Positions 21,039 through 58,131 of a DNA stretch of 64,000 nucleotides are shown here, piece by piece; position 1 is the stretch's first letter; each line of letters starts with the position of its first letter. The DNA lies in contig JAQUSB010000006.1 of assembly GCA_028715345.1 (NCBI GenBank), forward strand, positions 4,096-68,095, written 5' to 3'. Both the position numbers and the translations under genes were made by a program. The notes under the pieces are model-generated. The model was not told where the DNA came from. It made no database searches and saw only the letters and a program-made list of their open reading frames with translations. Source of the DNA: Candidatus Omnitrophota bacterium. Lineage in GTDB: Bacteria; Omnitrophota; Gorgyraeia; 2-01-FULL-45-10.

Positions 21039-21504
21039 CGGTTAAATTTTCGACTATCTTTCGCACCGTTTCGTATTTGAAGCCGCGGCGCAGTAAAAAA
21101 TCGTATACACGCTTAAGCGCCTTCCGGCGGTCGATCTTTTTGAGGCGGGCGAATTGCTCGCGCGCCATGTTAAGAGCGATCGCATACTCGTCGTATTCAT
21201 CAGCCTTCTTACTGAGGGCGTCTTCAATGAGCGGATCGGCCACGCCCTTTTCTTTAAGCTCATGGCGCAGGACGACGTCGCCGACCGGGTTTAAATGCAT
21301 CCGGCTTTCGATCCACAGTTTCGCAAATCGCGCGTCGTCGATCTCACCGATCCGTCTTAAGGATCCGACGACGAAGTCTATGACTTCGCCGCCGTAACCC
21401 TTCATCTTCAGGCGGTTACGTATCTCGAATTCGCTCCTCGGGCGCTGGCGCAGGAGCGCATAAGCGTTATTCCTCGCCCTTGTCTTTATCTTGTCGAGGT
21501 CCAA
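21028..21504 (-). CDS. recX: RecA regulator RecX
   Basis: 158 aa three-helix-repeat protein immediately downstream of recA. Overlaps the alaS start by 11 nt. Confidence 0.8.
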   Translation of the reverse strand: MDLDKIKTRARNNAYALLRQRPRSEFEIRNRLKMKGYGGEVIDFVVGSLRRIGEIDDARFAKLWIESRMHLNPVGDVVLRHELKEKGVADPLIEDALSKKADEYDEYAIALNMAREQFARLKKIDRRKALKRVYDFLLRRGFKYETVRKIVENLTDAD

Positions 21505-21505
21505 A

Positions 21506-25903: not shown

Positions 25904-28900
25904 TTACGCGGCCATTAGCGCGTCTTCGACCATCTTCTTGTAATGATTCAGCCTGTCCTCTACGTCGATCTTTGTAACAGGTTTAAATCTGAGTATTACG
26001 CTAAGCGCTAATGCCAGCGAATCCGTAAGGATCTCGTCGGTAACCTGCACATCGCCGAAGAGGAAATTCATCCCCATCTTTATACGGGCAGTGTCTTTCT
26101 CCATCATCGCTTTCGCAAGGTCTGCCACCGCTTCAAGGTAAAGGTAGTTGGTCCCCTCGAGTTTGCTTATGACAAGTATCGTCGCCTTCAACTTCTCAGG
26201 ATTCTGCTCGAGACCGCGCTGTTTGCATAATCTTGTAAATTCATCGCGCGTCATTATGCAGGCCGCCGTCCCCTCGCCCGCCGTCCTGTCTACATCTTCC
26301 CTCGACGCTATCTCTTTTATCTCATCGAAGGACCCGACCCTGACCGGCTTATCGTTACCGACGAGTCCTCTGAGATGCTCGGCGTCCTCTGTTTCGAAGA
26401 GCCTTTCCGAAAATACTATCTGCGCGCCGGCGGGAAGAGGGGTTGCCGCGAGGCTCTCCCTGAACCTTCTATCTGCCGCGGTTATCATATCGCTTACCTC
26501 ATCACCCGCATTCGCGCCGGCGGCATCGGTGACTATTTGCGTCTCATCGGCCAAATCGTCTTCGCCATCCGAACTTCGGCGCTCCGACGCGGCGCTTGGC
26601 TCTTGCTCGGGTGACGGTTCGACCGGGTAAAAGCTTTTCATAAAACTATCGACTTTGGCCATTGCCTTCTTGATAAATTCTTCAGCTTCGGGACTTGAAC
26701 GTATGTGTCTGTATGCATTATCAAGCTGATCCCTGAAGTTTATAATCCATGCTGAGCTTTGCCAGACACCTGTAGATTCTGCATTAGCCGCACCGTATTT
26801 TTTGATTATCGCCCTTGATAATGTCAAATAAACTTCCGTCCCGATATCCATGAGGTCGCACAAGGCGTTAAAATCTACTTCTGCGCTATTTGAATAACCT
26901 CTGCTGATATTACCCGAAATCGCATCGGGATCGCCTATCTCTTTCTGCAATTCATCAGGGGTCATGACACCCCAGAAAAGCCAGTTAATATTCCCGTTTA
27001 CTATATCGCGCGTAGATTGGTTTAAAACGGGATGGCGTTTATTCACAGTGTCCTGTATAAGCTTGGCAATAAAACGATATGCCGTTACTTGTTTTTCATT
27101 TCCTATAGCCTTATTATATTCAAAGCGGCCGCCTTCTACCATTTCCGCAAGCGTTTGTTCCGTAACATTTTCATTCCAGATAAGCTCCTCCGCCCCGGCG
27201 CTTGGCGCAGGCGACGGTGCGGCGGGAGCAATGCCAGTATTGTCTACAAAACTTATTCCTAATAAGTGCGCTAAAGATCCGAGCTTTTCGCAAATAATAG
27301 GCAGGGTTTTACGCAGAGGATGAAGATCAGGGATAGCTGACCTTGATTCCAACCTTATGCCTTTACTTTTTTGCGCTAAAGATATTCCGGCAACTAAGCT
27401 AGGCATATTGTCTTGTGTTGATAATTCGTTTGTATCATAAAACTCTATCCTCCATTCGTCATAACTGGCTGAAATTGTCCAGGCAATACTAGGACATTCA
27501 CTGGATAATGGTTTTCCAACTCCAAAATGTAGCTCAATATAAGAAAATGGATCTCTCGTATACCTAGCCCTTGCAAATTTAACCACGCCTGGGATGCCCG
27601 AAGCTTCTTCCGGCTTTTCAGGCATACCGCTGGCAAATCTCAGCGCTCCGCCCGACCTCAAAGGACTCTGCATTTCTCTTAGCGCCTGCGTATCGGGCGC
27701 GGTCGGGCCTCCGGCCTGCGGAAATATAGCGCGGTGTTTCGCGCCATCGTCTCTACGCATCGCACCGTCTACTTTATGCGCTTCACTTATTTTCGTCGTG
27801 TCGTCTCCGACCTGCGAGCTTCCGCGCCCGAGAGCAGCGGCAGGCATAGATGCGTCGATATCAAAAAGTAATTTTCCGTCCTGGTTAAAGACTCTAAGGG
27901 ATCTATCAGGGAATTCTTTTACGAAGAAATCCCTGAACTCTTCCGCATATTGGTCGTATACTATTACCCCGACAATAGCTTCAGGGGGGACATATTTTGT
28001 ATGCACCTCATCATGGGTAGGATCCTTTACTAAATGCGCTTCTTCGTATCTTATATTGCTATATATACTACCGGTTTCATCCCTGTAATTTGAAGACATA
28101 ACATGCGTATCTTTAAAAAATTCGCCGCAAGCTGTAAAGTCATTGATATGCTGCCGCAGGTAATACGGGCTGATTATCAGCGCTAAATCAAATTTATGAT
28201 CTTTCCAAAGCTCGTCGCTGTCTATACGCCATTTCAGAGCCGGATCTGGGGCGCCCCAAATGCTATTGCATGCAGATGTAGAGGAATAACCCAACTTGCC
28301 CACCATAGATAGCGACACCTTGCTGGGATCACCGCGCCCGACAAAATCATATTTTTTGAATCTAGGAGGAAGGTCATTCCACGGTTTAATGCCTTCCCTG
28401 AATATCGATAATAAACTATCTACTCGATCTTCAGGATCAAGGTGAGCTGCAACATGCCCATGGATAAGAAGCCCCGGCGTATTAATATCGGTTACTGTCG
28501 TAAATAGCGCAACGTAAGTTCGTCTTAGCAGCGCCTTGTTTTTATACAATACCGGCGTTGCGTTCGGCAGCATATTCTTACGCCAGTCTATCTGACTACT
28601 GGCGTCAAGAAGATTTCTATCGCCCATAGCCGCCCGCATTGCGCTCGTCTGCGTTCCATGGCCAAATGCCACTACTGTACGATTTTTGTATTGCGAATTA
28701 AGTTTTATCATGAGGTCTCGGCTGCGTTTTATCATATCGATAAAACTCTGCCCGCCCTTAGGCCGGATCGTCGCGTCTAATCCTTTGCGATACCTTGTTG
28801 CTAATGCCGCCTCTTCCGCGCTTAATTGATCTTCTCTTTTATTATCCCATATGCCGAAATTGATCTCGTTTAAAAGCTCGTCCGGGGCCGTCTCTACAAC

Positions 28901-31900
28901 TACGCCCGTTCTCTCTTTGACTAGATCTACGAAGGCCTTTGCCGTATCCTTTGCGCGGCTAAGCTGGCTTGTAAGAATTACTATCTTTTCGCCGGATATT
29001 ATCCTGACTTCCAGCTGCCTGAACAATTCTATAGCTGCCGAGCCGGCCTGCTCCAGGCCTCTTTTATTCAGTTTATTTATCGGCTCATCGAGCATTCCCT
29101 GGAATATGCCTTCTGCGTTCCCGTACGTTTCTCCGTGCCTGACCATCCATAGGTCGAATTCGGGCTCTATGAACCCGGCCTCGCCGAATCTTATTCTGCC
29201 CGTACTGTCATCTACGAGAATGCTGCCCCCCATATCCTCCGGCCGCACTGCAGCGTAAGGATCGGTACCGGTTTTCCTTTGGGGCACGGATTTTTTCGGC
29301 GGCACAATCACAACTTCTTCGACAATCTTGTCTATACCCCCCTTGCGGTAGATCTCTGCTCTTACATCCAAATCGAACTCGCTTAACATTATGGCAATGT
29401 TTTTAACTAAAATAGACCGCTGTGAAATAGCCCGCGCCAATTCGTTCTTAAGGTTATCTTTACCTGTATCTATGCCTACGGCCTGCAGAAGAGCTTTAAC
29501 GTGGGGGTTATCCAAACAGACCTCTGCAAACATTCTCTCATCCAGCGTAGTCAGCCTTGTTAATGTCCTCATCGTTGCGTCTATTTCTGAAACGACATCT
29601 CCGCTGGCATTCGTGGCCATATGGTCTATCTCATGCGGTATGCTGAAATGTTCAAACTTTGCCCTGCGCGCGCTCGTAGCCCTGCCGGTAATAATATCGC
29701 TCACTTCTTTCTCCGAAACATAAATAATAAATCTGCCGTTAATAAGCCTTATGATGGAATCCGTAGGCAAATCGGGACTGATTGCGAATCCTATATCCCT
29801 GCCCGTCCCCGCCGCGTCATGCACAGCTTTAATATTGACTAAGTAGGACAATTCTTCCGGAGTAGGCTGCCTGTTTTTTACTGAATCCGCAAAAGCGCTG
29901 CTGCCTACCGAGACGACAAATGGTGAGCGGGATTCCCGCCTATGAAGGCTCACACCCACGAACAGGCATCTTATCTCATCTTCCGTATATGGAAATTTCA
30001 TAATTGATTTTTCCGGATCGTATTCCGAGCCAAATAGGTCATTACCGTTATCGATGAAATCCTCTCTTCGGAAAGGATTTTTCATGAAATGTCCGGCGAT
30101 CCTTTCATCAAGAAATACGCCTTCTATTTCGGTAAAAGAATCGGCGATACGCTTGTTAAATGAATCGATATTATCGACAAACTCCCTGGCAGCATCCGCT
30201 GATTCGGAAATATCTCCCACGTCAAAAATAGTCAAATCATCGTCTGATTTTCTTATCCCGTAATTTCCCACGATATTATGAGTATCGATGTCGACGACAC
30301 CTCTCTTATACATCGCGATAACGAGCCGTTTGAATTTATCGACATAACTTATCGCGCGCTTCAATTCATCGTCACTGCACCCTTTCCGCCCCAATGGTTT
30401 TAAATAATCTATAAGAGGCAAAACCTTTCTTTGCACGATCGCTACTTTGCTCTCAACGCGTCCCTGGGTTTCAGTATAAAAAACGAACGGTTTTTGCTGT
30501 GCGGCGCGCGTATCTATTATCATGAGATCCGCGGCAGGGCCCTGACCCAATCTCTTCATCGCTATCTTCGCGCCATCCAGCGAATAGATATCGGCATACG
30601 CCATCGCATGTTCACCGTTCGGCACTTTAGCCACAAACCCGTCTGCCGGATCTTCGTCTTTGTAGCAAATCAAGTATCTGCCGACACCTCCATAGCTAAG
30701 CATATCTGTCCATACAACGGCTTTCCCGGAGGTTTCAGCGGACGGTTTTAAATTTTCATGAACTTTCCTTATAGCGCTTACAAGGTATGCTGCATCTACT
30801 TCCAGCGCTTCTTCTATTCCTATCCGATTAAGAATATCTCTCTTCTCTCCGATATTCTTGGCCGTCTCCGCCTTTTCTATAACTTCGAAATCGACAGTAT
30901 TTAACTTCCTAATAAACCTGTCAAATACATCCCACCTGCTTTCCTTGCGATCCGATCGCCTTCTCGGGCGACCGCCAAAAGGCGAAGATGCCGGCCTGTC
31001 ATTATTGAGAAACTCGTCCCCACCCAGCGAGCTTCCGTGCTCCGCCGCCACGTCCGGTTCTGTTTTCGTCGCAGCCGGCTTTGTTGCGCTATATTCATCT
31101 GTCTTCTTTACAAAAACCATACTCGGGAAGGAAGGTACCATTGAATTCGGAACTTTGTAACCGGTAAATCGCGCCGCAGGAAAGAACTTTTCGAAGTAAT
31201 TATCGGCCGTTGTAAGATTAAGAATGATAAACATTGCGCCGGGCTTAGCCTGACCGGCAAAGTTCCTGTAAAGGGTCTCCTGTTCACGCGGAAAAGCGCC
31301 CCTATCCACATAGACGACTATATCGTATCCGCTCAGATCCTTCTTTGTAAAATCATTATCGTTGCGTTCAGCCGGAATATTAACTATGCCTTTACCGATA
31401 ATGTTTTCACCCTCGAGGGCCGTCCTGATTTTAGCGGTCAAACCCCTTAGTTTATCATCCAATTCCGATCCGTCGGCCAGACCGGCTCCGCAGACAGCCG
31501 CCGTAAATAGAACGTCACCTCTTCCCGAGCCGGCATCGAATAACTTCTTACCCTTTATGCTGACGGGCTGTAAATTCTCATCACACAGATTGGCGAACAA
31601 CTCCCGGAGAGCGTAGATATCCGAACCGACATAAATGCCGACATCGCCGTCGACGCCTGTCGCATCGCCTTGTTGATACGGAGACTGATATTCCGGTCTT
31701 GAAAGGACACTGGAAAGGCGGGCTATTTTTCCATCTTCGATCCTAGAAGCCGCTTTGGCCTCTTCGCCCTGCGTGTTTCGAGGCAGCGGTATTTGAATCT
31801 TAATAATGTGTCCTCCGGGTTTCGGCCCTTCATGCAAAATATCGTCCTGCCAGCCTACTGTAATAGACGCTCCTTCCGGCATTGCTATAGATTCCTCGAT

Positions 31901-34900
31901 CGTTTCCAGCGCATAAAACATCGCGGATACACCTCCGCCGGCTCCCGTTTTTACGCCTCTTGCCGAGTTGGGCGCTTTTTCACCGGGCCACGGCCTGTCT
32001 TTTGTCGTAAACCATTCTTTTGCGGTCAATTCTTCGGGCAATTTGTTAGAACCAGGACCCCATATTTCAAGACGAATCCCGTCATAAGGCTCATTGCATG
32101 GATAAATTCTGGCCACAACATAATTACTAGCCGTCCCTCCTCCGCCGAATGAATAGCGATATTCATGATGCTTTAAATTTGCGATTATGTTCATCAGTAC
32201 ATGTTTAAGGAATAATTCCATCGCCTCCGGCGCGCTCGCTTCGACTCCGGCATCCTTACGTAATTGAACGCTGAAATTATTTTCTTCAGCCGCTTTCATT
32301 ACTTTTTCCGCAAGCGGCTTACCGGTATCTATTTTAAACAGATCAACTTTGGTAAGGTCTATTTCTGTTTCGGCAAAAGCAGGCACAGGCCCTGTCTTGC
32401 GAGAGGTATGCACAGGAATGCCTGCGGCATCCGGCTCAATACGCGCATATTTACCGGGCTTCGGTATCGCCGTGTCTTTGCCTTCTGCCACAGCGGTTTG
32501 TTGCGGCGTTGCCGCCTCGGCTGGCTTCTCCGACACTGCGGCATCTTCCCGCAAAACAGCCTGCTTGGCCTCTTGCCATGCCTGTCTCCATACGGCCCTT
32601 TCTTTGCTCCAGTAAGCGTTAAATGCCTGGGCGCCTTTACTTTGGAAAATCATACTACGCATATCATCCGGCAGAACTCTGCCCAGGACACGCATCACGC
32701 CTGAAAGTTTTTCACTCGCATAGCCGAAACGCTTTTCTACATCCGTATACACCAGCCGCGCCCATATTTTACGTTCAGATGTCTTGAAGCGAACAATGCG
32801 AGCCTCGGGTATACCCATGATTATGATGTCTCTACCTGTCATAGGGGTAACCTTAAATATCGCCTTAGTAAGCTCCTCAAATGCCGCCGATGATGCCTCC
32901 TGATCAAGCTCCAGAGCTCTTTTGATACGACGCGCCACCTCATCTGGGCCTTTATAAAACATGTCTTCCAACCATCTTAATAAAAGTATTTCTTTCCTGC
33001 TATTAAGCGACAATTCGCCTTGCAACGCTTCTGTTATCGTTCCGCGGAAATCTCTATCTGCGAACATAGGCTCAGCCTGCAGGCATATATCATTTACCAT
33101 ACTGTTAAGTTTCGCGTCAGCTTCCTGCATAGATATGGCGGGAGCAGCCTTATCGTGGAATGCTTCATCCAAAGACACATCTTCAGGGACTGAATCTGTC
33201 CAATCTTTAGAGTCAGTCGGCAATAGTTTATATTGGATCACCCCTCTGCCTAACCCCGCCTCAGCCATTCTCACCTTATAAATAGCTTCCATCACTACTT
33301 GACCATACTGCCTGCGTATAAAGCCCGGTATATCAGGATATAGCCGAGCTACATTAAGTTCTGTTCTTAGTCTCGTAAATAAAGTCGGATTCTGTGAAAA
33401 TACATAGACTATGCGCGCCCAATCTTTATTTGCCTCGGGAGTGCCGAGGTTTTCCATAGATTTAAAAGCGGCGATAACACCTTCTCCGTCGGGTACGGCC
33501 AGGCCTTTCGCCATGGCTGCCGTCCATTTCATAAAATCGCGCCTTGAAACCTGCGGCTGCCAGACGCCCCTCGCTTCAGACGGCAGAGGATGCAGAGGGT
33601 TACCGCCGAAATCATCCAAAGCCTTAATTCGGCCTCGCATGGCTTGCGGAACAGCAGTTTTAGCTACGCTTAGCTGATTTGCGGCGCCTCCCTGCGGCTT
33701 CGCGGGTTCGGCCGAGGCAGCTATGGCCATATCTACGGCAGCTCTCATCTCCTTGAAACTTTTATACATACCACTTTTTATTTGGCTGATCATTTCGGCA
33801 AAAGGCAGCCAATCTCCTGAGCCGGATCCTGTTATATATTCTTTAAGCTTGTCAGGGTTTTCCACTCCGCCCGGAATATTCACCTCGCCGGTAGCGAGAA
33901 CCGCAAGTGTATCACCTATCTTCCATTGATATGTTTCAAAAACATTCTGTCTATCGCCTGAAATGAACCATGAACCAAAATCCGTAAGCCTGAACCCTCC
34001 CTCGGCCGTTACAAGCATATGGCTGATCTTATAATCACTATAAACAATGCCCTCTTCCGAAAGCTTATCGGCGGCATCGATAAACTCTTTCACAGCCCCC
34101 AGCACCGTTTCAGGTTTTTTGCCCCTCGACCAAGTCAGTATGTCTTCGCCTTCGATCCATTCCATGGCATACCAACTGTTGTCCGGCGCCGCGTCTATAA
34201 AACGCGGAATAAATTTATATCCGCGCGTGCTGAGTCTTTTGGCCATAGCTATTTCATTAATAAAATCGGCTTCTATCAGTTTGACATTATATTTAATCGC
34301 TACTTTTGAGCTAGCCCCTATATCTTCCGCTTCATATATATTAGACATGGCATGCTGCCTGGGGCCCAAGCCGGTTATAACGAAAGAACGAGCCTGGCCT
34401 TTGACAGTTTGGCCGGGAATAAATTTTTCGCCTTTACCTTCACCCGGCATCTGCGCCCGGACGACTGCATTATCGCCGGATGGAACCGGAGCAGCCTCTT
34501 TATTTTGCACAGCAGCGCCAGATCTCGATAAGCGGTTAGCGATAAATTCACCCCACTTTTCTCCGTAGATCGGCGCGTTGGCCCTGATATTTGTCTTAAA
34601 TATTTCGACGGCCCCGTGATAGTGTTTAATACGCTCATCACATAATTTTATTATTGTTTCACGCTGCGCGTCGTCTGTATGTTTTGCGAATTCCCTTAAC
34701 GCAGCTATCGCTTTTTCATTTTGCACGATCCTTTCCCTCAATGATCGCTCTAAATTTTCATATTCTTCCCCGCCTTCTTTAGCTTTCCGGATCTTCTCAA
34801 GAAGCTCATTTTCAGTGTCAATTGAGTCCATCCTTCTGGCTATTAAATAATCCACCTGCCTGCCAAGGTCTAGTTTATTCTGTGCCGCGTTCTTTCTTGT

Positions 34901-37900
34901 AGAATCATAAATGGTATTCCCTGTCAATCTATCTAGCAGTATGGGATATAGCTCTATAGGCCCTTCCCCGGACGCGACTATATCGCGATATCTCTTTATC
35001 TTCGCAATAAGAGCATCCCCTCTCGACAGCAAGCGTCTGGCTATATATGCCGAGATCGACTCACCGATCGATCTTCCGGTTTCTTTTTGAAGCTTAGCTA
35101 TCTCGGCAGGGTAAGCATCTACATACGCATATGCATGATCTTCCTGGATCCTATCCCAGTATTCCACGGTGGTTTCAGGTAAACATTTTCCGAATAGATC
35201 GGTATATACCGCTTCGATCGCTTCGGCGGGTATACCGCTACTAGAGGCCACTTTTCCCACAATAATATGTCCAAGCGGCGATATTTGGAACGGGGACATC
35301 AAGCCTGCTTCCAGAAATGCCCGTCTATCCATTCCTTCTTTTCCCGGCTGCATTTCCGGCTTATCGGGCACACCTGCAGCTGCCGCTTGCGCCTTTTCAA
35401 CTTGCGGCTTCGCATCTCTATCCGGGGCGGGCAGGCTTTCGCGGCCTGTCTTTTCCTTGATATGCAAAGACCTTATTTCTTCCTGCAGCACACTTAACTC
35501 TATCTCTTCTCCCACAGCATCGATACGGGCCGGGGCAAGCTCCAGTTTTGCGGGTTGCTGGCTTATAATACCGCGGTTGATCGTGCAAGGTATGATATTA
35601 CCTGCCGTATCAACTCCGCCGACATAACGAGCGGGTGCGCGCAAAGAAGCCTCAAGCCATATCGCGGCGTCTTCTATATTCTTTTGTTTTATTTCGTCAA
35701 AACCAACCGTATCGTTAAAACCCGGTATATCGAGATTTGCGTCAGGATGCCGTGCAAATAAAATACAATTTTTGTTTCTCTCGAGGGGGGCAAAACGCCC
35801 GGGATACAAAATTTCAAGATATTCATTCAACCTATCGATCGCATGCCCATCCCACATGACATCTACCATCCGGGCATGCCGCTCGTCATTACCTACTATA
35901 TTTTTATTTTTCCGGAGATAGCTCAATATCCCATCTTTCGGGCTTCTTTCGTAAATAGTCCTGGGAAAATCGAGATATTTTATATCTGCATCGGGATCCA
36001 GCCCAAAGTCCGGAGCTAAAAACCTCGCTAACACATAAAGTTTGTATCCCGCCCCACCGATAAATACCATATACTCTTGTTTGGCATCGAGCCTACGCAT
36101 CTCGCTTGCAAGAAACTCATAAATAATCGATGCATGCTTTTTAGCCTCCGTCTTTATCCAGTCATACTCCGCACCCGGCGCGGATGCATTCTCGGTCTTC
36201 GGCGCTGGGCGCGGCGTGTTCGTCCTACCGATATCCGACTCGCCCCACGGGTCCGTCTCTTCGGGCGGATTACCTACGACGATCCTCACCTGCTCCTCGG
36301 GTCCGACATCCATAGTATCGCCGATCCCGAATGTCCACACCGCTCCGGACGAAGTTTTATACGGAGATATCTGCCTGCCAGCCGGATAAGTTCTCATAAG
36401 GGCGTTTTTACCGTAAGACGGCGCGGGCAAACGCACCATACCGATCGAGTCAAGATATCCCGATAGCTGTTTTATTATCCTGCCGGAACTTGTAACAGCC
36501 GCGGAAGAATCGGGCAAGAACGGCAGTTCGGATATCATGCTCCTTATTTCCGCGGTTAATCTTTTCACATCATCATTTTCGCCGTAAGCCTGGTACGCCT
36601 CCTTCGCGACGCACTCCGCTATGCCAAGCAGCGCCCGCAGATCGCCATACAGGCACATACGATAATCCCGCTCGCCGTCGCGGTATGGTATCTCATAATC
36701 TACGATATGCGGTAACCCGCTCGAGTAGAGTATATGAGGCCTTTCCGCGTCTACAGCGCCGTGAGCGATGCCCTTAGAGTGCATCTCGCTTACGGCTTCA
36801 TACAGCCAGATGATCTCATTGACCCTCGCGCTCAGATATTCTCTTAGAGGCATGCCTTCGAGAGCGCTGTAACGTATATGTTCGGCAAGGGACAGGGTCC
36901 CGTAATCGGGCATTAAATAGACGCCTTCATCCTTATACACGGCGTGCACTTTAGCGTGGCACGGGTGCTTTAAAAAGCCGCCGCACAGCTCTATCTCTTT
37001 TTCCCGGCCCTCTATTGGTTCGATAATAAATCGCAGACCCGTATCGACTTCCACGACTAACTTTTTATCGTCGCCGCCATGAGCAAAATTGCGTTTTTCT
37101 ACTTCATATTCTTTGCCGCCGAGGATAATTGCTTGACCAGTATTGAGACGGCTTATATCGATCTTCGCCGGGGCCCGGGTTATTTTTGGCTGTCCGCCTT
37201 TATCATTAGATATTACCCGCAGTACTTGCTCAAGATACGCATGAAGGTCGGAGGCTCTGACAACAGCACTGCCGTAAGGCGCGGGTTCGGAGATTAGCGG
37301 GGAATCCGGATAAAGGGCTCTGATCGCTTCCTGAAGATTATCTATACACCACAATAAGGAAAAGTCTTCGTTAAGTATGCCTATATTTAACGGCGGGGTA
37401 AGCTTTTCTTTAAGAGGCAACTCCCCGATCCGCAAACGCTCCGCGGCCGCCGCAACCACCGCGAGAGTATTATAGTACGATTCGACCCTGCCTTTATTTA
37501 CCTCCGGGTCAAGTCTCGCTTTCTGCCATGCCTCGGAAGCCCACCTCAAATAATAGTCGCCCAGCATATTCCATGCCAATATACCTGCGAACGCCGCTGT
37601 CATTACTGCGGCCGCCGGCACTAAACCATAGTTATAATACACGGCGAGTGCAACAAGCGCTAACGGCAGTATCTTAATAATGTTAAAAATCGGAGCGCTT
37701 CCCGATTCGCCCAATCCGTCCAAACCCTTATTTTCCGCAGTAACGCTTTGCGATAACTCACCTTCGAGACCATAAGCGGCGATTATTTTCTTTTTAACGG
37801 CCGCATTCTTTTCCGCGGCTGCTTCACTGACTCTTTTCGCAAGCGCATTGTAATGATCGTTGCGTATGTGCCTGCCATCGGGAGTAATACTCTGCCCAAA

Positions 37901-40900
37901 TCCATAAGCAGAAACATCGGAAATGTAGAATATCGTAAGTATCTTAAAGAAATTTTCCAGGCCTACGCCCGATTTTATCGCCATATCCTTGATCTCGGCA
38001 AAAGCTTCGTCGACGCTTTTTATGCCGCGCACCATCAGACCTATAGAGTCTTTCTCGATTAATGAGACCACAAAATCTATCTCCGCCGGGGTAAATTTCA
38101 GCCTATTCATCAGCTTTCGTATTATCTGAGGAGTGTAAGTATATTGGCGGTTTTTATCTCCTTCATCTTCGGCCATAGGTTTACCTATATCGTGCAGCAT
38201 AAGGGTCAGCCTGAAGAGCGCCGGCACATCGAGGTTGGGTATTTTCGGCAGATCGCCCGCCATGCCCGACCGCTCGAAATTTCTGGCTACTATCAGTGTG
38301 TGCCCGTATAGTTTTCGGCCGGCCGCGGTAAACGCCTTCGCGTATCCGAGCCTGTCACTACTAACAAAATCGAGCGTTTTCCTTATATCATACTGCCCTC
38401 CCCTGCCTCCCCATAAAAGGAGCTCATTTAGAGATTCCCGCAAAGCCGTGCTTTCGCTGTCCGGGCCGGGAAGCGCTTCTTCCAATAGCCTACTGACTTC
38501 ATTTACGTCTTCGAAACCGAGCACCGAGGCTATCTTTTGGCTGTCAGGCAACGGGAAATCCGGAGATATGAATGACAAGGCCACCAAAGCCTTTATCAAT
38601 TCCTTTTTCGAATCATCCGTCAATGCCGACAGCGGGACAGCTTTATTACTGATGACGCCGAAATCCGGGGAAAAAGATATGCCTAAATCTACTAATTTTT
38701 TGGCATCGAAAGCGAGAGCTATAGAGGGTGTCTCTAAAATTTTTCTTCCAAGGCCCATGCCTTTGGCCACCTCTAAAAGAGGGACGCGATTCAGGAACCA
38801 CGTGGGGCGTCTAAGAGATACCTCATTACGGCTTAATATCAACCATATAACGCCGATCCAGGTGCGGTGATAAAGCCATCCTTTATTGGAAGGATTTTCC
38901 TGAAGATATCGGTTAAGGAATCCGGACGATGTATATGCCACCGGAATTAACGGCGCGGGGCGGGATACGGGCGCCATACTTGCGGTATCGGCAAGCAAAT
39001 CGCTGTGCGCCGGCGCGCGTATCCTGTAAGAACCTAATCCTATAGAGCTTCTGACATTAATATGGCGGTTGCCCGACGAGGCCGCGCAAAGCTGAGGAAA
39101 AACTTTTACGGGAAAATCATCCTGCAGGAAATACAACGCCGAGCCTACACAACCGCTCAAATCCTCATCCGCAACGCGCACGCCGCCGGAAGATGAAAAT
39201 TCGGCCAGCTCTCCGCCGAAAGGCGATATCTCTTCCACTCCCATCTCTCTCATTGCAACAACCAGCTTCTTCCAGGCAGGCCTGCAGCCTTCCGTAGTAT
39301 CAAGATCGACCCGCACTCCTATCGAAGGCGTAGGGTTATATGGCGTAACTGACGGCACATCCACGATAACCGCTCTCGTCTCCACGTCCTGCAAATTCTC
39401 ATAATCTCCGCCTATGACAAAAACTACGCCTGTCTCTTCACGTAACGCAGTCTTCAGGTTGGCAAGATAAACCTCTCTTTCATGCGGATCCGCAACGTAC
39501 TTACCTCCTATATGCACGTACAGAGCCGCCCTGCCCTCATGACGCGATATTATCTTAAGCAGATCATTTTTGCGCGCAAGCGCCTCCTGCCAGCTTATCC
39601 TGCGCGACGATATCGGGCCCGGCATAACCTTGCCACCTGATGCGAATAAATCCCGCGGCGCCGGCATTGCAAGCCGCTTTTTCAAGCGCTCTATCAAGTC
39701 TCTTTCGGCAGTCCCGGACGGGAATAACGCCTCTCCCCTTCTCATAGATTCGGCGCGCAGATATTCTTTATAAGCAGCAACGATTCTCTGTTCGGTGCGC
39801 CGCCCTTGAGGCATACCGGACAAGGCCTCGGCGTCGGCTATACTCATCCCCAGCTCCGTCAATATTTCCGTAAAAAAGGTTCTCATATCTTTAAGGTGTC
39901 TGTCCTTCTTCGAATACGGCCCGACTATTATCGTATCTTTATATTCGGATCCAAACCGGCCGAATGCGGCGTCGATATACAAGGCGGGTTTTTCGTTCCC
40001 TGTATACACGGCTGCCCACGCATGATATATATCAGGGGCATCTTTATTTTTGTATAGCCCCGGGGTAACTTCTATTCTCACCTCATCGTTTCCGCCTATC
40101 GGAACATTAAACCGTTCGGACAATAATTCCGCCAAGAGAACGGATATTACGCCAGATTCCCGGGATTGAAGATCGGACACCCCTTCTTCTTTCAGCGCGG
40201 CAAAGAGATCGCCCTCGATACTCTTAATGAAATCGCTTATTTCCGCGTGGCTGACACCCGGATCTGCCCGGTATCCATCCTGCAGTTCTTTCATATCATT
40301 CCGCTCCGTTGGATGCAGCCAATGCTTATAATTCGGCTGGACGTGATAGCGAGCTATGTCTACTCCTTCTTTTTTTAATGCCTCTATAAAGGTCCCATTA
40401 CTTTCTGCCAGGGCTATGACCGTGCCTTTCACAGGGACAGCGTCAAAGAGCCCTTCTTCTTTATATAATGCCGCTGCCGCAGCTATATGATCCGCTATAA
40501 CCTGGCAGGCCCTTGAGGAAAGTTTATTGCTATTTACGAAAATTTTTATACGCGCTCCCGGAACAAGATCGGATGTATTTAACATAATACCACCCGCGTC
40601 AAACCTGTTTTTTATCGGTGAAACCCCTCCGCCTCTTTCGATCATACTATATTCTATTTTAAGATCTTCCCGGAAATTCAAGCCTGCGCTTAACAATATC
40701 GAGGCCATCGCGCCAGCCGGTTTCCCGTGCATATCAACATTCAGCGTCGCAATGGCGCTGGCTTCCCCGTAAGCAGGTGCGCCGCCGCCCTGCAAGTCCT
40801 CAACTGAACGAAATGCCCTTGCGCCGAAATTGCGCGCGGTTCGGATCATTTCGTTTCCGATCTCACGGCCAAGCGTACCGAGAATGTCACCCTTGATCAC

Positions 40901-43900
40901 CGCACTGGCAGCTGCCGCGGCCCACTGGGCACCGTGCCTGCCCGGCCACGGCCTTTGTCTTCCCCCTCCGACTGCCGCTTTCCGGCCTTCCGTCTTCACC
41001 TGCGCCCGGGAGTCCGCCCTAATAACCTTTAACTCATAAACGCGCTTGTCATATTCAAAGATGCGGCCCGTTTCTTTTATTTCGTATCCGCACATCTTGC
41101 CGATCCTTATCAGCGATCCGATCATTTGCGGTTCTTTGTCCCGGGAAAGCGCTGACAACAAAATTACTCCGTCCGGCTTGGACAATGGTAAGACCGCCGC
41201 GATCAGATCATTTCTTTCGCTATCGCCTAATTCATCTAATACGTTCAACAGGAATATCTTAGAGTAATGATTTTTAGGCAAATCAACATCCTGAACGCGG
41301 CCTCGATATGTTCCCGTATCTATGCGCTCGCCTATCATGTCGTAGCCGAATATTTTTTCCATGAGCCTTTTGTAAAAATTTACTTTTCCTTCAAAGCATT
41401 TCGTCTGTTCTATAGCCCCTATATCACGTATTTCATAATATGGCGGCTGACATAAGTCCACTCTTGCACCTTTTATTGCAGAAAAAACGGCATGATCCGC
41501 AAGGGGGCCGCTGCCGATACACAATACGTCATCATCCTGCCCAATGCCGATCCCATCGATCATATAGGCTGTATTAGAACGCATCCAATCATATGTACCT
41601 AACTCCCGATCCATAGCATCGGCTATCACTGAAGCAGTTATGGGCTTAGTCACGGTTGGGCCGGTTTGCCGGTTTTCAGGCGCCATTTTTATATGCACAT
41701 AGGCTGTCTCTTCCACCGTTCCACTAATATCATCAATATAAGGGACATTCAGGCTGAACTTTCCGACAAACCGCACGAAGGGGTCTTCCGGATATCTCGT
41801 AATCGCAAAAGGCTCTACCGAAATATGTATACCGCCGGGTTTAAGGATACGCCCGATCTCTTTCCGCGCTTGAGCGGCCTGGCCGCGGTCAAAGGGCATC
41901 GCCTTTACCGTATCGAAAATGCACCTCTCCGTTACAATGTCCATCATACCGGTAAACTCTTCAGGCAATTCAAGAACGTTCATGCGATATCCGTATATCT
42001 TGGGTGTCGGTTTTCCATGAAATTGCTCGTCGAGGAAATAGTCTAATGCGTAGAAAACGTCCCAACTGACGTCAACAAGATGTATGGCGCCTATCTCCGG
42101 GTATTGCTTGATCAATCTGGTAATTGCTTTAGGATTCGTTCCCGGCCCTATAAAAAGAACGTTAGCGCCTTTAAGGTCCGGCTTGAAAGAATAGGGCCCC
42201 GTATCGGTTTTCATGGCTTCTTCGATAAAATTACCGACGAAATGATATCTGGTGTTCTCCTGCGGGGCAATACTTGTAGAAACATACGCATCTTCTGTAT
42301 TAAAATCGGGTGAAGTGACTCTGTATTTCATCCCGGCTTCCATAATTTGCTGCGCAGTTAACCATTCACGCAGTTCTATAACTTTTAATTTGGGCATTTT
42401 ATCATTTTCTAGTTCACCCAGGCGCTTCTCTATTCTTATTGCTTTCTTCGCGGGGCCATACATACCTATTGCGTTAACGGCCATACCAGGACGCGATTCT
42501 TCTCTCCTGGGGAATACGCGGTCTTCTCCGTTATCCGGCGAGCGCCTGATATCTAAATAGGGGTCGGGATTTGATTTCGATGCCGTTTTTTGTTTATCCG
42601 GCAACGGTACACTAGCCATGAAAACTAATCGCCCGCCCTCGAGTTTAATCCCTATATTTAGTCTTTTAGCGATCTTCGCATACGCTTTAATCTCTTTCTT
42701 GACTATACTGGGCATAACAACATCTTTTTTATATCCCTTGGCATCCTCTAATACCAATTTCATTAAACGGAACCGCACGTCCTCTTTACGCGTTTCATCA
42801 TATACATATAAATAATTTACGTATATTTTGCCCGGGTAATTTACGGGGTCGAGATCATATTTAATATCTCCTAGTCTATGAGGGCCGGACTTTATGGTAA
42901 AATAAACTTTGTGATGCCCTTCCTGATATCGCTCATGTTCGATTTTGAGACTTGCGGGCATAAGGGGTTCTTTGGGGAAAAGTTTGTTATATACCATTAT
43001 GATAATGTTGACTATAACATGGGTAATAACATACCCGGCATAAAGACATATAGCAGGCGCGCCGGGAGATTTAAATGTCCACCAGAGGCTTATAAGCATT
43101 ACCGCAATAGGAGCGGTAAAAACACCCTGGATCGTATCGCTTGCAGAGGGTTCCTTATTATTATTGGCTTTATATAACGAGACATACCTTGGGACATTTA
43201 CATCATGCAATAAAACCAATAGCAGCGACGCGAAGATCACTCCTGCTAACCCGCCAATAATACCGCCAACCCCTTCACCCATATTATGCCCCATGACTCT
43301 GACGCCCTCTTCCAGTAACGGCATTATGATCAAACTGCTGAACCAACTTATACCGGAACTAGAGCTCAACGCTATCGAGCCTGACGGGCGGTCATCATCC
43401 ATATCTTCCAGAGATACAACCGGGGCCTTATCTATTTTCCCGCTGAGAAGGTTCGCTGATTCCCCATCCTCTTTTACCCGCGACCCGGGAAGCCGATCCT
43501 GCGGCGCCGGACGCGGAGTGCCGCCGCCCAGATCTTCCGGCATACCGTCCGACGTTAACCAGTCACCGGCGGGTTTTAAATAGCTTCGCGGGCCATCCGT
43601 GCTTTTCAATGGATTCTGCGGCACGCGGCCTGCGGCCATCTTCTTCACCGCGCCCTGCGGCCGTGCCTCGGACGGAGCCGTTGTGCTCGTTAGAACCTTC
43701 AAATTATTCTCTAAACGCCCTATTTCAGTTTCTATGAGCAAATAATCTATGACATCGCCTCTTATTCCGTTAAAATATTTACCATCCCGCATATCAGCCA
43801 GAAAAACCTTTAATCTCACGATATCTTTTTCTAATTGCCTGAGGGCCTTTCGCTTTATTTCCGGCAGGTTCAACCCCTCGCCTCTTCCTATTCTCGCATC

Positions 43901-46900
43901 AAGCTCTGCCAGATCTTGATGTGGCATGGAGCCGAGCGCCCTTTCTACCTCAAGTTGTTGCGGAAGTATCTTGGCTATGACTTCGTTAAAGCACCCTGTT
44001 TCTGTCAATTCTCTTCTTGTTTCTTTATTGACAAAGCCTATCTGTATATAAGGCAAAAATTTCCTTCTTTCAGAAATGGAAATACCTGATTCATTTAATT
44101 CAGCGGCCAAATACCTCTGCCAGGAAGGATGGCGCTTCCTTACTTTGTCCCGCGCCTTCTCTTCCGCTGCCGCTACCTTATCCTTAAGGGATTTATTTTC
44201 AGGCAGATCTATTATCCTGTGCCATTCTTTAAGAAGCATCCCCTGAGAAACCAGAAATATATTTATCATTTGATTATTGAGCGGGACCCGCACATTACCC
44301 GATTCCGCCTGCGCCCTGAATGCCCTATCTATCGCATCGTAACCTTCTATGTTAGTACGAGCCCTGATCGGCATCGGCTCATCTAAAAGTGTGCTATCCG
44401 TTCTGCTTTCTGCGTACGTTTTTATAACCTCACCCATAGGACGCAGTAAAGAAAAACGCGATAACATACTGCCCGCGCCATACATTACGTTCATCGCGGT
44501 AAAATCAAATTGCCTTCGGGTTACGTCAAGCCGGGACGGCGCCAGCCGTTTCGCGAAAATCTCTTGTTCGTACTTAAAATATTTCAGGTTTTGTTCATGG
44601 TGGATGCCGGAGGTGCGGTAATAGATCAGCGCGGCTAATATTACGGCGGCGGCAAGAGGCAGGACCGCGGCAAGGTAAAGAATAGATACTACAAACAAAG
44701 GAACCGCGTTCAATAAAGCTATCGCTAACGCGTCGGACAGCGGGGGCCCTCTTACTCCCGGAGCAGATATGGCATGAGCGGCGAAGAATAAGGTCCAGGT
44801 GACTGCGATAGAACCGCACAGGGCAAGTAAAAGGTTATAATCCGAAAAATACGCCAAAGCGGCCGAAAGCAATAGATTGCCTATGCCAAACCACTTCTGC
44901 TCGAAGCGGGATTGCCCCCTCTTGTCCCATCCCTTCTTATCGAAAAGATAACTCACCCACGGGATCATTCCGACTATATCGCGTCCTGTTTCCGTTTTGC
45001 GCAGTAAAGTATTTACCGCCTCTGCCGAAAGTTCATACACACCCAGACATTTCTTGACTTCGTAATGTTTCAGATAGCCCAGGATGGTTAAACTGCCGCT
45101 ATCCGGAGACACCGTTAACCCAAAAACTTTACCGAAAGGTACGGGAATATAACCGGCTTCCCTGAAGCCTTCTGCGGTCTCGGTATATAAATGTATGCGC
45201 GCCGGAGACGAAACTGTCTCTTCCGCTATATAAAACCTGGTCCCCGTCCCGTCCCGCCCGTGCATAATACCGACAGGCTGGTTAATAATATAGTTGAATA
45301 CGGCCGCAGCAGGGTTGGCCGCTCCTTCCGCCGATGCTTTTTTGTCATTTACGAACGCTTTCCTGTCAATATCGAAAAAATTGACTATGCTCACCGGCAT
45401 GACGTAGACTTCAGGATGGCCGGCCACTATAAGTATGCGGTTCACCCGATCGATACTCAGGTGCACCTCCATGCATTCCGTGCGGTCATAACCATTACCT
45501 CCGTAAAGCGAAGACCCGACCCTCTCCTTTTCACCGCTCGTAAGATCCATGACCATTATCGATTGCCGGGCATAGTCCCAGTAATATAACTTCCTTTCGA
45601 AAACGGCCATAGACGCAGGCTCCGCCTCCATCTCTTTATCGGCTGTATCGTATTCTTTTATGAAACGACCGTCCGGACCGTATTCAAATACCCGCCCGTC
45701 CCCGGCCGCAGCAAATATGGACTCTTTCTCGTCCACAGTAATGCAATTCGCGTTACTAATATAGTTGCCTTCACCGTCCGCAAGAGAAACGTAAGCGCCC
45801 GTATCCATATTGCGTATCTGCGGGCGGCCCCTTACTACAAATACGATGTTGCCGTTCGCAAGCCTTTCGGCGGAATTTGTCTCGTTGTCGCTTGTCGAAG
45901 TCAATAGCTCGAAAGAATCGGAATATTCGGGGTAATCATAAATTATCGCGCGGGCCCTGAGAGAACCGTCTTTAAGCAATCCTGCCGTCTTAGCTCCGAT
46001 ACCTTTTACTCTATTCGCATATCTGCGCATATCGGCCCCGGCCTGGATATTCAGCGGGATCGCTCTCCACTTTCCGGCTATAGCAGCCTGATCTTTACGG
46101 CTTTTTATCGCATCAGCCTCTTTACGCAGTCTTTTAGCCGCCGCATTCTCTATCTTTTTCCTGTGGTTACTAGCCTCGCGCCATGCCTTTTCCTGTTCAT
46201 CTACCAGCGCTTCATCTTCCGAGTCCATATTCACAAAATATGTGTCAGATGCGGCATACTGTTTATCGCGCCCGACGGCCAGCCGTTTTACCATCCTTCT
46301 TACATAAGAGACAGGTAATGCGTTTAAACCTTCCTTATAACACCGCAGGCTCTCTCTTGCCGCGTCAAGCACATCTAACACTCTGTACAAAACAGCCGGG
46401 GTCAGCTTCCTGTCCCAGCCGGGCATAGAGCTTTTTAACCGGTCTGCAAGTTCGTCCCATACCCTCGCTCGCATCTCTTCGCCCGGCGGCACTATACCGT
46501 CTTTGCATATTCTATCGTAAAAAACTTTCGGGGCGAACATGTCCGCTTTTTCACGCATAGCTTTTAATATCTTTCCGGCCGTATCGGAGTTTAACTCTCC
46601 GGGTTCCAGCCGCCTTAAAGCGGATAGTCTATTAAGAGCGTCGCTCCTATTTCCGTCAAGAAGCATCTTTTCTAACAATGTCTCTGCGCCGAAATCAACT
46701 CTGTCCGCACCCCAATTGGCCTTCACTATACCTACTATTCGAGCCTCTTCATTTATAGCCGCGATAAGCCACTCTCTGCCTTCCGTTATTTCGGTTTCGG
46801 AGATCGAGGCCGGCGGGACGCTTCTTATGGTATATCCCTGGCTTCTCATGAATCTCTCTTCCGCGCCGTATTCTTTTATCATCCGACGTATCTCATGAAT

Positions 46901-49900
46901 ATACAAAATTTCATCGGGGATCCTATCCAGCGACGTTATCCCGAATTGTTCCCGCATCATAACCAGGAATTTTTCTTCCGGCAGTTCAGCTTGCTCCATC
47001 AATGCGCGAAGCTTCGCTATCTGCTCTCCGGATATGGGTGTGCGGAAAAGCTGGGGGCTTGCCGGCATAAGCGGCGTTTTCGGGAAAATTTTATTGTGCA
47101 GTATAACTATGATGTTCGCAAGGACATGATAGATCAAATATTCTTTATAAAGGAATGAAGCAGGCGCCGCGGCATATACATACGTCAACCACAGACTGAT
47201 CAGCGCGACGACCGAAGGCATTATGAAAACAGCCATAGCTGTACCGGCGGCAGAAGGCGCCTTACCGTTATGGTATTTATATATTTCTACATACCTCTTC
47301 GTATTAACATCGTGCAATAGGATCAAGATGGCCGAAGCCGCTATAAGGCCTATCCATCCTCCGGCAAGGCCTCCGATCCCCTTACCCATCTCATACCAGC
47401 ATACCCTGACCCATGCTTCTAAAGGCGGTAATAATGCCAAAGAATAAAACCACCCTATCCCGGAAGGAGGCCTTGACGCAAATCCGCTCTCGCTTTCAGC
47501 ATTCCTTTTAACGGGAACAGCGGCATGTTTGATCTTTTTTACCCGCGCCTTCAAAACATCCGCGATCTTGCGCGAGCCGACCGCGCCCAGCACGCCCTCC
47601 TGCTCCCATTCGCTTTTATTCAAATAAAGAGGCGTATATCCGTTTCCGATCAATAGATAATTCATTAAAAACCATGCCAGGCGATGGTGGCCGCTTGCGG
47701 GATGCGTATTGCCGCCCGAAAGATCCGGTATCGTATCGAATCCCCGTAATAGCACATCCTCTCCGGAAAAATCTGCTCTCCGCCCGCCGCCTATAAATAT
47801 CTCCCGCTGAATGATGTGCGCATAGATATCGCCGGCGTAAGCAATAACATTCTCGCCATTGGCGTATTTATGGTTTACCAGTTCTAGAATATAGCCCAGG
47901 CTTTCTTCGGCTGAACTTATCCTTTGCTGTTTTATTTCATCAGTATATTCCGGATTTTGCCTGTCGCCGCGGTATAATTCGAAGAGAGTGATGATCTTAG
48001 GCCATGTAAGCGGCTCGCCAGATACTGAATTAAAATACTCTGCCGCCTCTATAAAATGGCTATCGCATCCGAGTTTCCGCAAAATATCTATGTCAAGTTT
48101 ACCTATTTGCCGGTCATCCGCCGTTACTGCAAGCGACTGATTTCCCGGGATACGATAATGGCAGATATATGTAGGAGGCAGCTTTCCGGCCGGACGGCAA
48201 TCTACGATATTAACTTCCGGTTCGCTTACCGGCTCCATCTCAGGGAATGAGACCTCCGGATAAAGGTTATCTATACGCAAATTGTACATCTTCCGGCCAC
48301 TGCCTTGGGCTTCATAATGCCTGTATTGGGGTTTTTCCGAAGCGGCATTCAGCCAGTCGCAAAGCTCGCCCGGATCCATAACCCTGCCGGATCCGTCACA
48401 GACGTCAAAACACTCTACGCCTTCGATAAAAGCGATGCCGCCTTTCTTTAGAACCCGTTTGCACTCACGCAGGATCATATTCTTTTGCCGCATATATCGC
48501 AAAGACTCGAACGTAATTATCAGCACATCGAACGAGCCGTCCGGGAAAGGCAGCCCCCGGTCGACATCATGCTCCCTGATATTTTTAAAGAAATAATCGG
48601 TAAATTCCTGATAGTCGGGGCCGAGAAGCCTGTAATGCCTCTCATGCAGCCTTATATTATTTTTATTTATAAAATCGAGCGATAATTCCGGAAATTGCTT
48701 CCTCATATCATAGATATAATGGCCTGCTCCGGCGCCTATGACCAGTCCCCTGGGAGAATGCCCTGCGCTGCGCGCCTCCTGCATTACACCGCGTATAGCC
48801 GGCGCGGCCTCACCGCCGAACATCTCTTCTGTTTTACTGAACCGCCTGCTAACCCAGATAAGCGCAAGGAACTCGTTTTGCTCGGTATTTACTTCAGCTT
48901 CTTTATCATTTTGCAGGACCTCATTTCCCGTATCTGTTCGCCCCTGTCCGGAGATCTCGTCCATGCGCAGGAATGCCTTCGCGCCGAATCTTTGCGCGGT
49001 GCGGGCCATCTCGCGGCCGATCTCGAACCCGGGAGCGCCTATAAGAGCACCTGCCGCCGCATCATAGACGGCTGCCGGGACCCATTGCGCGCCTCGCCTG
49101 CCCGACCACCACGCCGGCCTGCTCTTGCCGCCGCCGGCCTTCCGCCTCTGGCCTGTCTTACCTTTTTTAACCGTGACGGGTTCAGATGGGCCAATATTTT
49201 CATTTTCATCACCGTATTCGTCGTCTTCGTCATCTCCATCCATTTCGTCATCATCGGGCTTCCCTGCAACGGCTTTCCTTAAAAAGTCAGTATCCGATAT
49301 CTGCAGGTCTCCGGCGGAGATGGTCCCGCTTATAATAAGTTTTTTCAGCTTATATTGGGCGGTGGTAAGCAGCATCTTACGGTCATTGGACCTTCTAAGG
49401 TTGAGTCTTTCGACTACGTCTTTTAAGGCCGGCTTCCTTATATAGCCGCTCTCCATATATAATTCAAACGCTGTAGAAATAATCTCCTCAACAGGGAAAA
49501 GAGGTTCCGGATCCATAATAACAGCTTCTTTTCTCCCCATATCTCGCTGCATTTGAACGACATCTAATTCATCTTCAGGATCCATTATTTTCATGAATTT
49601 TTTCGCAGCGGCAGGCGATGGGGCGATAGACCGGCTGAGAGCTTTCAATACCATAAGCGGAAGCGTTTTCGCCAGCGCGTCATTTCCTTTCTCGGGATCC
49701 AGGATATAACTGCACACATATAATCCGCGCTCATCGCAAAAAATAAGCTTCGGCGCTTTCCCGCGTTCCCGTATCTTTTGCGCTTCGAATTCGTACAACA
49801 ATCCATCTTTAAGATATGCTTCCATACGTTCATATGAAGCATTTAAGATTCTCGATATTTCTCCGGAAGATATACCATTGTGCCGGGCGAGCTCCTCTAT

Positions 49901-58048: not shown

Positions 58049-58092
58049 TTGCCCTATATAATGTTTTATTCTTTTAACAAGACAAAAATAAA

Positions 58093-58131
58093 AAGACCAG
58101 ATCGCCAAGCGTCTCTAGGCTATCTGGTCTT
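58093..58131 (-). other. Perfect 10-bp inverted repeat hairpin plus T-tract in the giant-gene leader (terminator/attenuator-like)
   Basis: AAGACCAGAT (58093-58102) and ATCTGGTCTT (58122-58131) flank a 19-nt loop. On the minus strand the hairpin is followed directly by UUUAUUUUUGUCUUGUU (58072-58092), about 25 nt upstream of ATG 58046-58048. Confidence 0.5.

Follow-up and report, generated by a model that had tools for sequence, protein, structure and literature searches.

What kind of phosphatase does the giant protein encoded in this stretch of DNA carry, and are its catalytic residues in place? The stretch (hereafter the window; 64,000 nucleotides of contig JAQUSB010000006.1 from a Candidatus Omnitrophota bacterium, GCA_028715345.1) holds on its reverse strand an open reading frame (ORF) for a protein of 10,734 amino acids (aa). 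An initial annotation had proposed two different phosphatase folds, a histidine phosphatase and an HD domain, in the C-terminal soluble third of this protein. The peptides that it quoted were all found in the translation of this single ORF (25904..58108). Its histidine-phosphatase call was borne out, with the Pfam profile, the catalytic residues and the predicted fold all in agreement. HD domains are metal-dependent phosphohydrolases at large (mono- and diesterases, nucleases) and not specifically phosphatases, and the idea of two phosphatase folds is therefore supported in part. We consider it likely that the protein contains an intact histidine phosphatase, probably a sugar- or glycoside-phosphate monoesterase and not a mutase, fused with an HD phosphohydrolase in a membrane-tethered mosaic protein.

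The Pfam His_Phos_1 profile (PF00300, gathering cut-off 21.7 bits) matched aa 9653-9828 (window 28625-29152) at 89.8 bits (E=2.3e-25), and a shorter piece of the giant protein matched it at 92.4 bits (E=4e-26). The signature peptide LWMVRHGETYGN, which had been placed at about 29126-29162, was located at 29117-29152, and the peptide VVAFGHGTQTS, claimed to hold the second catalytic histidine at 28640-28690, was found inside that interval, with H9817 as the histidine (the coordinates of all features are collected in Table 1). The triad R9657-H9658-G9659 comes after the strand DLWMV and is aligned to the RHG of GpgP (4pz9). When the domain was aligned with 12 relatives from the database, R9657, H9658, a glycine, a glutamate, R9718 and H9817 were invariant. 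The proposed RHG...R...H...E set is complete, and since N9664 and E9748 are also present, the whole R-H-N-R-E-H catalytic set can be read.

Comparison with solved structures showed the same family both in sequence and in fold, the predicted fold being the alpha/beta/alpha one typical of this superfamily. A phmmer search against the PDB sequences gave 32 matches, of which the best were GpgP (4pz9, E=2.7e-11, about 30% identity), PhoE (1h2e) and CobC. The alignment with 4pz9 paired LWMVRHGET with LVMLRHGQT, LSRAKDTA with LRRAYDTA, LNEINFGIW with LRETHLGDW, and AFGHG with LVAHG. The AlphaFold2 (AF2) model of the domain, a predicted and not an experimental structure built on the alignment with the 12 relatives, had a mean predicted local distance difference test (pLDDT) of 88.1 and a predicted template modelling score (pTM) of 0.87. 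It was ordered over aa ~9628-9857 and showed an extra N-terminal beta-hairpin (TGRIRF, aa 9636-9641). With this model, Foldseek returned 295 PDB matches at E<=0.001, headed by GpgP (6s2q, 4qih; E=5e-16 to 1e-15) and followed by the phosphoserine phosphatase PspA, Rv3214, CobC and TIGAR. Mutases ranked lower; GpgP, PspA, CobC, TIGAR and cofactor-dependent phosphoglycerate mutase (dPGM) together spanned E=5e-16 to 1e-11.

Thus GpgP of M. tuberculosis (glucosyl-3-phosphoglycerate phosphatase, Rv2419c; 4pz9, 4qih, 6s2q), a branch-1 enzyme, comes closest among solved structures by sequence as well as by fold and has the RHG, R, E and H residues in common with the window domain. At an identity of only about 30%, no substrate can be inferred from it. 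On the one hand, the window domain differs from GpgP in the TGRIRF hairpin and in a distinct C-terminal segment, IDWRKNMLPNA, which are common to its own small subfamily only. On the other hand, GpgP is a free-standing enzyme, whereas the window phosphatase is embedded in a protein of 10,734 aa.

Because every NCBIfam equivalog scored below its cut-off, the domain is read neither as a mutase nor as CobC. The models for CobC, PspA, GpmB, dPGM and RNase H/acid phosphatase were all far under their cut-offs, CobC (alpha-ribazole phosphatase, TIGR03162) for example with 65.8 bits against 162.9. We conclude that aa ~9628-9857 form a predicted branch-1 histidine phosphatase of the phosphatase type, catalytically complete as judged by its residues and equal to no named enzyme. 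The alternative that the domain is a dPGM or a related mutase, which would give the protein a glycolytic step, draws on the shared superfamily, on weak NCBIfam matches to the GpmB and dPGM models, and on the glycolytic enzyme domains reported for the giant proteins named Archaeovorins (West-Roberts et al., 10.1101/2023.11.21.568195). We regard it as highly improbable. The dPGM equivalogs reached 15-35 bits against cut-offs of 225-366 (35.3, 32.0 and 27.3 bits against 261, 225 and 316), and the His_Phos_1 match ends at position 158 of the 194 in the profile, so that the C-terminal tail is absent. In addition, GHGTQ is found at the second histidine, and branch-1 phosphatases stood above mutases in the sequence search as well as in the fold search.

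In the phospho-histidine mechanism that is standard for the superfamily (Rigden 2008, cited in PMC3240985), H9658 would attack the phosphate of the substrate to form the phospho-histidine intermediate. The phosphate would be held by R9657, N9664, R9718 and H9817, and the leaving group would receive its proton from E9748. As substrate, a phosphorylated metabolite of small size is most likely, probably the phosphate of a sugar or a glycoside.

The relatives of the domain bear on this substrate class. A word-indexed search of 5.8 billion proteins gave only 15 matches for the phosphatase domain, and the three closest are free-standing metagenomic proteins of 291, 245 and 302 aa (P0001, P0002 and P0003) with 49%, 39% and 28% identity. 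The identity spans the whole domain, including the TGRIRF N-terminal hairpin and the C-terminal IDW..N.LPNA segment, and by this similarity we take the three proteins to be the actual subfamily of the window domain. Unlike the window domain, they are encoded by separate small genes, each directly downstream of a carbohydrate-metabolism gene in the same direction. The upstream neighbours are a GT9 glycosyltransferase gene (gap of 101 nt), an NAD-epimerase gene preceded by GT4 and GT2 genes (27 nt), and a mannitol dehydrogenase gene (10 nt). Considering that these relatives adjoin carbohydrate genes and that the closest characterised enzyme is GpgP, a glycoside-phosphate phosphatase in polysaccharide synthesis (PMC3240985), our best inference, and no more than that, is that the His_Phos_1 domain may be a sugar- or metabolite-phosphate phosphomonoesterase. 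As a separate observation, in the last of the three loci (L087, 6017-8909) the 302-aa protein gene lies on the same strand as the mannitol dehydrogenase gene, which encodes 657 aa, and this gene pair could be a mannitol-1-phosphate dehydrogenase with its phosphatase.

A different role is suggested by the company that the domain keeps within the polypeptide. The domain could be a phosphoprotein phosphatase of the SixA, PGAM5 or STS kind, which would reverse phosphorylation by the kinase-like or HATPase_c domains of its own chain or act on prey or host proteins. The same chain contains a protein-kinase-like domain at aa ~7919-8047, a module with kinase-like motifs (aa 9051-9400) about 230 residues upstream of the phosphatase, and HATPase_c at aa 1117-1227, and such a Pfam set has been termed a 'signal-transduction / regulatory' module (10.64898/2026.06.07.730766). 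We nevertheless judge this role unlikely. Small-molecule phosphatases (GpgP, PspA, CobC, PhoE) make up all the best matches by sequence and by fold, with no SixA or STS among the matches listed, and the nearest free-standing relatives adjoin carbohydrate genes, not kinase genes. Moreover, the relatives of the kinase-like modules and of the phosphatase module are unlinked in other genomes.

The two kinase-like domains proposed for the tail fared differently from each other. The one at aa ~7919-8047 keeps VAIK and DFG, with YSDYKISH in the place of HRDxKxxN, and profile evidence for it is weak (Pkinase at 25.8-28.6 bits with a cut-off of 31.7; a PAK3 match at E=4e-5). The other, at aa ~9130-9310, was seen as kinase-suggestive motifs only (VAKVPN, DIDTHNIVGNYG and IFDVGD); the region of aa 9101-9400 had no Pfam match, and no PDB match either by single sequence or by a three-sequence profile. 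The order of a kinase module ahead of a His_Phos_1 module in one chain is analogous to that of 6-phosphofructo-2-kinase/fructose-2,6-bisphosphatase (PFKFB), in which a kinase of the P-loop fold stands directly beside the phosphatase. In the window protein, in contrast, about 230 residues lie between the phosphatase and the upstream modules, which resemble protein kinases at best, and homology of the window domain to PFKFB was not seen beyond the superfamily level. The methyltransferase that had been assigned to the tail was recovered as one weak PDB match (E=0.0033) around a motif I.

We then consider the HD domain. Its LYGHTL and LMLHDIGKP peptides were found within the interval proposed for them (38060-38400), and the assignment stands at the superfamily level only; it failed the curated cut-offs, with 13.9-15.3 bits against 22 for Pfam HD (PF01966) and 14.7 bits against 27.6 for NCBIfam HDIG (TIGR00277). 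An exhaustive HMMER search of 1.84 billion cluster representatives revealed a family of 720 proteins at E<=0.001, of which 219 were at E<=1e-10. These relatives occur both as proteins of about 200 aa and within large proteins. Among the best 150, 65 had at most 300 aa, 61 had 300-1000 aa and 25 had more than 1000 aa, the largest being 5,538 aa. The H...HD...D set (H6603, H6639-D6640, D6731) is present in the window protein and is kept in 143-151 of 152 relatives. The positions conserved in the family are H6603, H6639, D6640, a glycine, a lysine, Q6655, T6659, D6687, G6690, D6731 and Y6735.

When 55 family members were combined into a profile, it matched 3wfo, a tRNA nucleotidyltransferase of Aquifex, in its HD region (E=3.5e-4) and, weakly, the HD domains of Cas3, and 28 of the 55 members touched PF01966 (best E=1.8e-5). 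The AF2 model of the domain was all-helical (pLDDT 82.4, pTM 0.81). Its Foldseek neighbours included 3wfo-3wfs (TM 0.50-0.56, probability 1.0, E=5e-3) and further the C-terminal domain of PPX/GppA, Rel, dGTPases, PhnZ, phosphodiesterases and SAMHD1; except for some 14-3-3 and designed helical-repeat entries, the list consisted of HD-type proteins. The class II tRNA nucleotidyltransferase of Aquifex aeolicus is thus the best solved match, with EHTL...HDIGKP...H in common at about 17% identity. Unlike that enzyme, the window family is not fused with a nucleotidyltransferase, has D-P-I-G and D-A-x-S-Y motifs of its own, and has no Pfam model. Accordingly, and at the superfamily level only, aa ~6570-6785 appear to be a divergent HD-superfamily domain of a large uncharacterised family, with H...HD...D intact. 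The family consensus reads EHTLMV..QFEKYF...LHDIGKP...GDK..QH.YT...DPIG...YY..DA.SYT.DAGG. Candidatus Omnitrophus magneticus has one of the relatives, a membrane protein of 1,576 aa.

The position of this domain in the protein required a correction. A Kyte-Doolittle scan (19-residue window, threshold 1.6) found 18 hydrophobic segments, most of them paired, in the giant protein. The last pair, aa 6805-6846, stands between the HD domain and the tail, so the HD domain lies upstream of the C-terminal soluble third and not within it. The tail itself was described correctly: about 3,900 residues free of hydrophobic segments had been proposed after a last transmembrane cluster at ~37560, and we counted 3,888 residues after aa 6846 with no Kyte-Doolittle segment above 1.6. 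Should the last pair form a helical hairpin, the tail would be on the same side of the membrane as the HD domain. The paired segments would tether the chain to the membrane, and each module (GNAT, HATPase_c, methyltransferases, kinase-like, HD-like and phosphatase) would fold and act independently. The need of these modules for S-adenosylmethionine (SAM), acetyl-CoA and ATP suggests that the chain, with both of its phosphohydrolase domains, would for the most part face the cytoplasm.

Several points weigh against the reading of an intact sugar-phosphate phosphatase joined with an HD phosphohydrolase in a tethered protein. The last 42-residue hydrophobic stretch could instead cross the membrane once, which would put the tail on the opposite side from the HD domain, and membrane topology was judged from hydropathy only. 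The neighbourhood argument comprises three relatives with 28-49% identity, and specificity in the histidine phosphatase superfamily cannot be read from sequence (PMC3240985). A role as protein phosphatase would fit the kinase-like and HATPase_c domains of the same polypeptide equally well. No giant orthologue was recovered; a search of genome contigs with the last 1,334 residues gave no relative. The HD domain is under the curated Pfam and NCBIfam cut-offs, and the similarity of its model to solved folds is modest (TM ~0.5, Foldseek E=5e-3). At a position where 127 of 152 relatives (84%) have His, the window protein has Y6656, and in the phosphatase the semi-conserved Glu of GGES is replaced by Gln (GGQSF).

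The last of these points also lead to the alternative that one or both domains are catalytically dead relics, serving only for binding or as a scaffold in a fast-evolving giant protein. The His-to-Tyr change in an HD domain under its curated thresholds and the Gln in GGES would agree with it. So would weak codon adaptation, which fits the G+C content at third codon positions (GC3) of the giant gene (25904-58108), 0.495 against 0.60-0.67 in the housekeeping neighbours in 18489-22612 and 59617-63921 (RecA 0.672, AlaRS 0.648, FtsK 0.645, MiaB-like 0.596). We find such decay very unlikely, as the R-H-N-R-E-H set is wholly intact in a confidently modelled phosphatase, the HD tetrad H...HD...D is intact as well, and the Tyr recurs in 17 of the 152 relatives, which makes it a tolerated state and not a sign of decay.

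Table 1. Location of the features of the giant protein in the window
Feature	Residues (aa)	Window position	Strand	Remarks
Giant ORF	10,734 aa in all	25904..58108	(-)	TTG start; first ATG = codon 21
His_Phos_1 domain	9628-9857	28538..29227	(-)	Pfam, alignment, AF2 model, Foldseek
LWMVRHGETYGN	9653-9664	29117-29152	(-)	
VRHGETYGN motif		29117..29143	(-)	R9657 29138-29140; nucleophile H9658 29135-29137; N9664 29117-29119
Second phosphate-binding arginine (LSRAKDTA)	R9718	28955..28957	(-)	
Proton-donor glutamate (LNEINFG)	E9748	28865..28867	(-)	aligned to Glu of LRETHLG in GpgP (4pz9)
Second catalytic histidine (FGHGT)	H9817	28658..28660	(-)	
VVAFGHGTQTS	9812-9822	28643-28675	(-)	
HD-superfamily domain, unnamed family	6570-6785	37754..38401	(-)	H6603, H6639-D6640, D6687, D6731
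LYGHTL and LMLHDIGKP	6600-6605 and 6636-6644	38177-38311 (together)	(-)	
Last hydrophobic pair	6805-6846	37571..37696	(-)	two ~19-residue segments, 4-residue joint YYNY
GNAT domain	247-331			Pfam
HATPase_c domain	1117-1227			Pfam
Divergent protein-kinase-like domain	~7919-8047	33968..34354	(-)	VAIK K7938; DFG at 8043
Weak SAM-methyltransferase motif I region (LFDAGSGRGD)	8845-8893	31430..31576	(-)	
Module with kinase-like motifs	9051-9400	29909..30958	(-)	
C-terminal domain	10541-10734	25907..26488	(-)	

The rest of the giant protein can be considered as a mosaic. Pfam scans matched GNAT, HATPase_c, Methyltransf_11, a weak Pkinase and His_Phos_1, and the domains are divergent and mostly unannotatable in these scans. 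Self-BLAST of the giant protein showed no internal repeats at E<=1e-5, so that the enzyme modules did not arise by recent duplication. The polypeptide is composed, like a mosaic, of unrelated modules whose nearest relatives are small free-standing genes, and from these similarities the modules appear to be whole genes fused into one polypeptide. A recent foreign origin of both phosphatase modules was also considered and received no signal, their GC and GC3 being within about 1 standard deviation of the rest of the gene. Within the giant gene, only the C-terminal domain nears the housekeeping GC3, at 0.634.

The clearest case of a whole-gene module is aa 9051-9400. It is end to end 52% and 48% identical to free-standing hypothetical proteins of 348/349 aa, which were its sole two relatives in the search of 5.8 billion proteins (L089/L090, 7398-8444; L091, 8001-9050). 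One of them is encoded on a 250-kb contig of a Woesearchaeota (DPANN) metagenome-assembled genome (MAG), amid RFC and aminoacyl-tRNA synthetase genes, and the other on a contig with Nre_N/Nre_C and TFIIB zinc ribbon genes; both contigs are archaeal. Such end-to-end similarity suggests that a whole gene was fused and that archaea and bacteria possibly exchanged genes. At the other end of the tail, the C-terminal domain (about 194 aa) has a counterpart, with 45% identity, at the C-terminus of a protein of 926 aa that is encoded at 51-2831 (+) on a 5.4-kb metagenome contig (L088). This protein also has a module that matches aa 5499-5654 of the giant protein (42%), and its contig was the only one obtained when metagenome contigs were searched for orthologous giant proteins. 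A much smaller protein thus reuses two modules of the giant protein; the shared regions had no Pfam match in either protein.

One could go further and regard the giant protein as a chain of whole, once free-standing genes taken from different donors. Its tail, with the kinase-like, methyltransferase, archaeal-type and histidine phosphatase modules, would then be a tethered line of phosphorylation and dephosphorylation on glycan or prey-derived substrates, and the acquisition of modules would be tied to the contact with archaea, predatory or episymbiotic, that has been proposed for Omnitrophota. We hold this extended scenario to be unlikely.

With regard to the host, the giant gene is surrounded by housekeeping genes, those for PGM/PMM, M50 and M16 peptidases, TrpE, HisD, AlaRS, RecA, a MiaB-like enzyme and FtsK. 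The RecA is 71-73% identical to those of Omnitrophota MAGs, the best of 594 matches, which is a measure of similarity and not a phylogeny. Giant membrane-associated multi-enzyme proteins of Omnitrophota have been described (West-Roberts et al. 2023, 10.1101/2023.11.21.568195), and the window protein resembles them in its Omnitrophota host, its length above 10,000 aa, its many hydrophobic segments and its unrelated enzyme Pfams. In a second study, a 'Module 1' was described in Omnitrophota long proteins with PF08241, PF02518, PF00583, HAD and HD-domain content, and these proteins were read as anchored in the inner membrane with their bulk in the cytoplasm (10.64898/2026.06.07.730766). The window protein belongs to this kind because it carries PF08241, PF02518 and PF00583, and it has HD-type content in addition. 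On the other hand, most full-length giant genes are reported to encode a SecA_DEAD-like domain (abstract, 10.1101/2023.11.21.568195), whereas no SecA_DEAD, dockerin or TSP3 was found in the Pfam scans of the window protein (aa 6001-6400 scanned at E<=0.01 only). With 10.7 kaa it is also small for the giant class.

Giant multi-enzyme proteins of Omnitrophota, including their HD content, are already known from the two preprints, and the window protein adds one member. The picture of these proteins as membrane-anchored multi-enzyme mosaics is unchanged by it. The terms PF00300, His_Phos and 'histidine phosphatase' are absent from the main text and one supplement of the 2026 preprint (10.64898/2026.06.07.730766), and the text of the 2023 preprint (10.1101/2023.11.21.568195) has no His_Phos_1, with 'phosphatase' occurring only inside fructose 1,6-bisphosphatase.

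His_Phos_1 is a common domain, and the histidine-phosphatase finding is a correct but fairly ordinary domain annotation. Its value is that a protein of which about 90% is otherwise unannotatable becomes firmly accessible to assay through a domain of about 230 residues whose catalytic set is complete. Modules that match small free-standing genes end to end support an origin by gene fusion and can be studied singly. In addition, attention is drawn to a family within the HD superfamily that is large (720 cluster representatives) and lacks a Pfam model. We consider that what is most interesting here is peripheral to the phosphatase, namely the whole-gene modules, one of them of apparently archaeal affinity, and the unmodelled HD-type family.

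Some minor features were also observed. Read from the Met codon 21, the N-terminal region (aa 1-57; 57937-58108, -) contains a sequence, MNSEASAEKPLPRRFPKAVRIIASILVVTFLAQDIAWA/HP, that resembles a signal peptide of the Sec type or a signal anchor. Such an N-terminus is difficult to combine with GNAT at aa 247-331, except as an anchor that stays uncleaved or with a different topology. The strand opposite to the giant gene has short ORFs only; the longest, of 135 aa (28851-29258, +), has no Pfam match and was treated as spurious. Between the archaeal-type module and the phosphatase, an HExxH motif, PHEIDHM, is present at aa 9491-9497 (29618-29638, -), in a region with no Pfam or PDB match. Finally, in the middle of the soluble tail, a motif like a twin-arginine signal, VSRRDFMKWTAAMA, was seen at aa 8187-8200 (33509-33550, -), where Pfam TAT_signal scored 20.4 bits (cut-off 22.7); an exported protein that formerly stood alone may have left its N-terminus here as a fossil.

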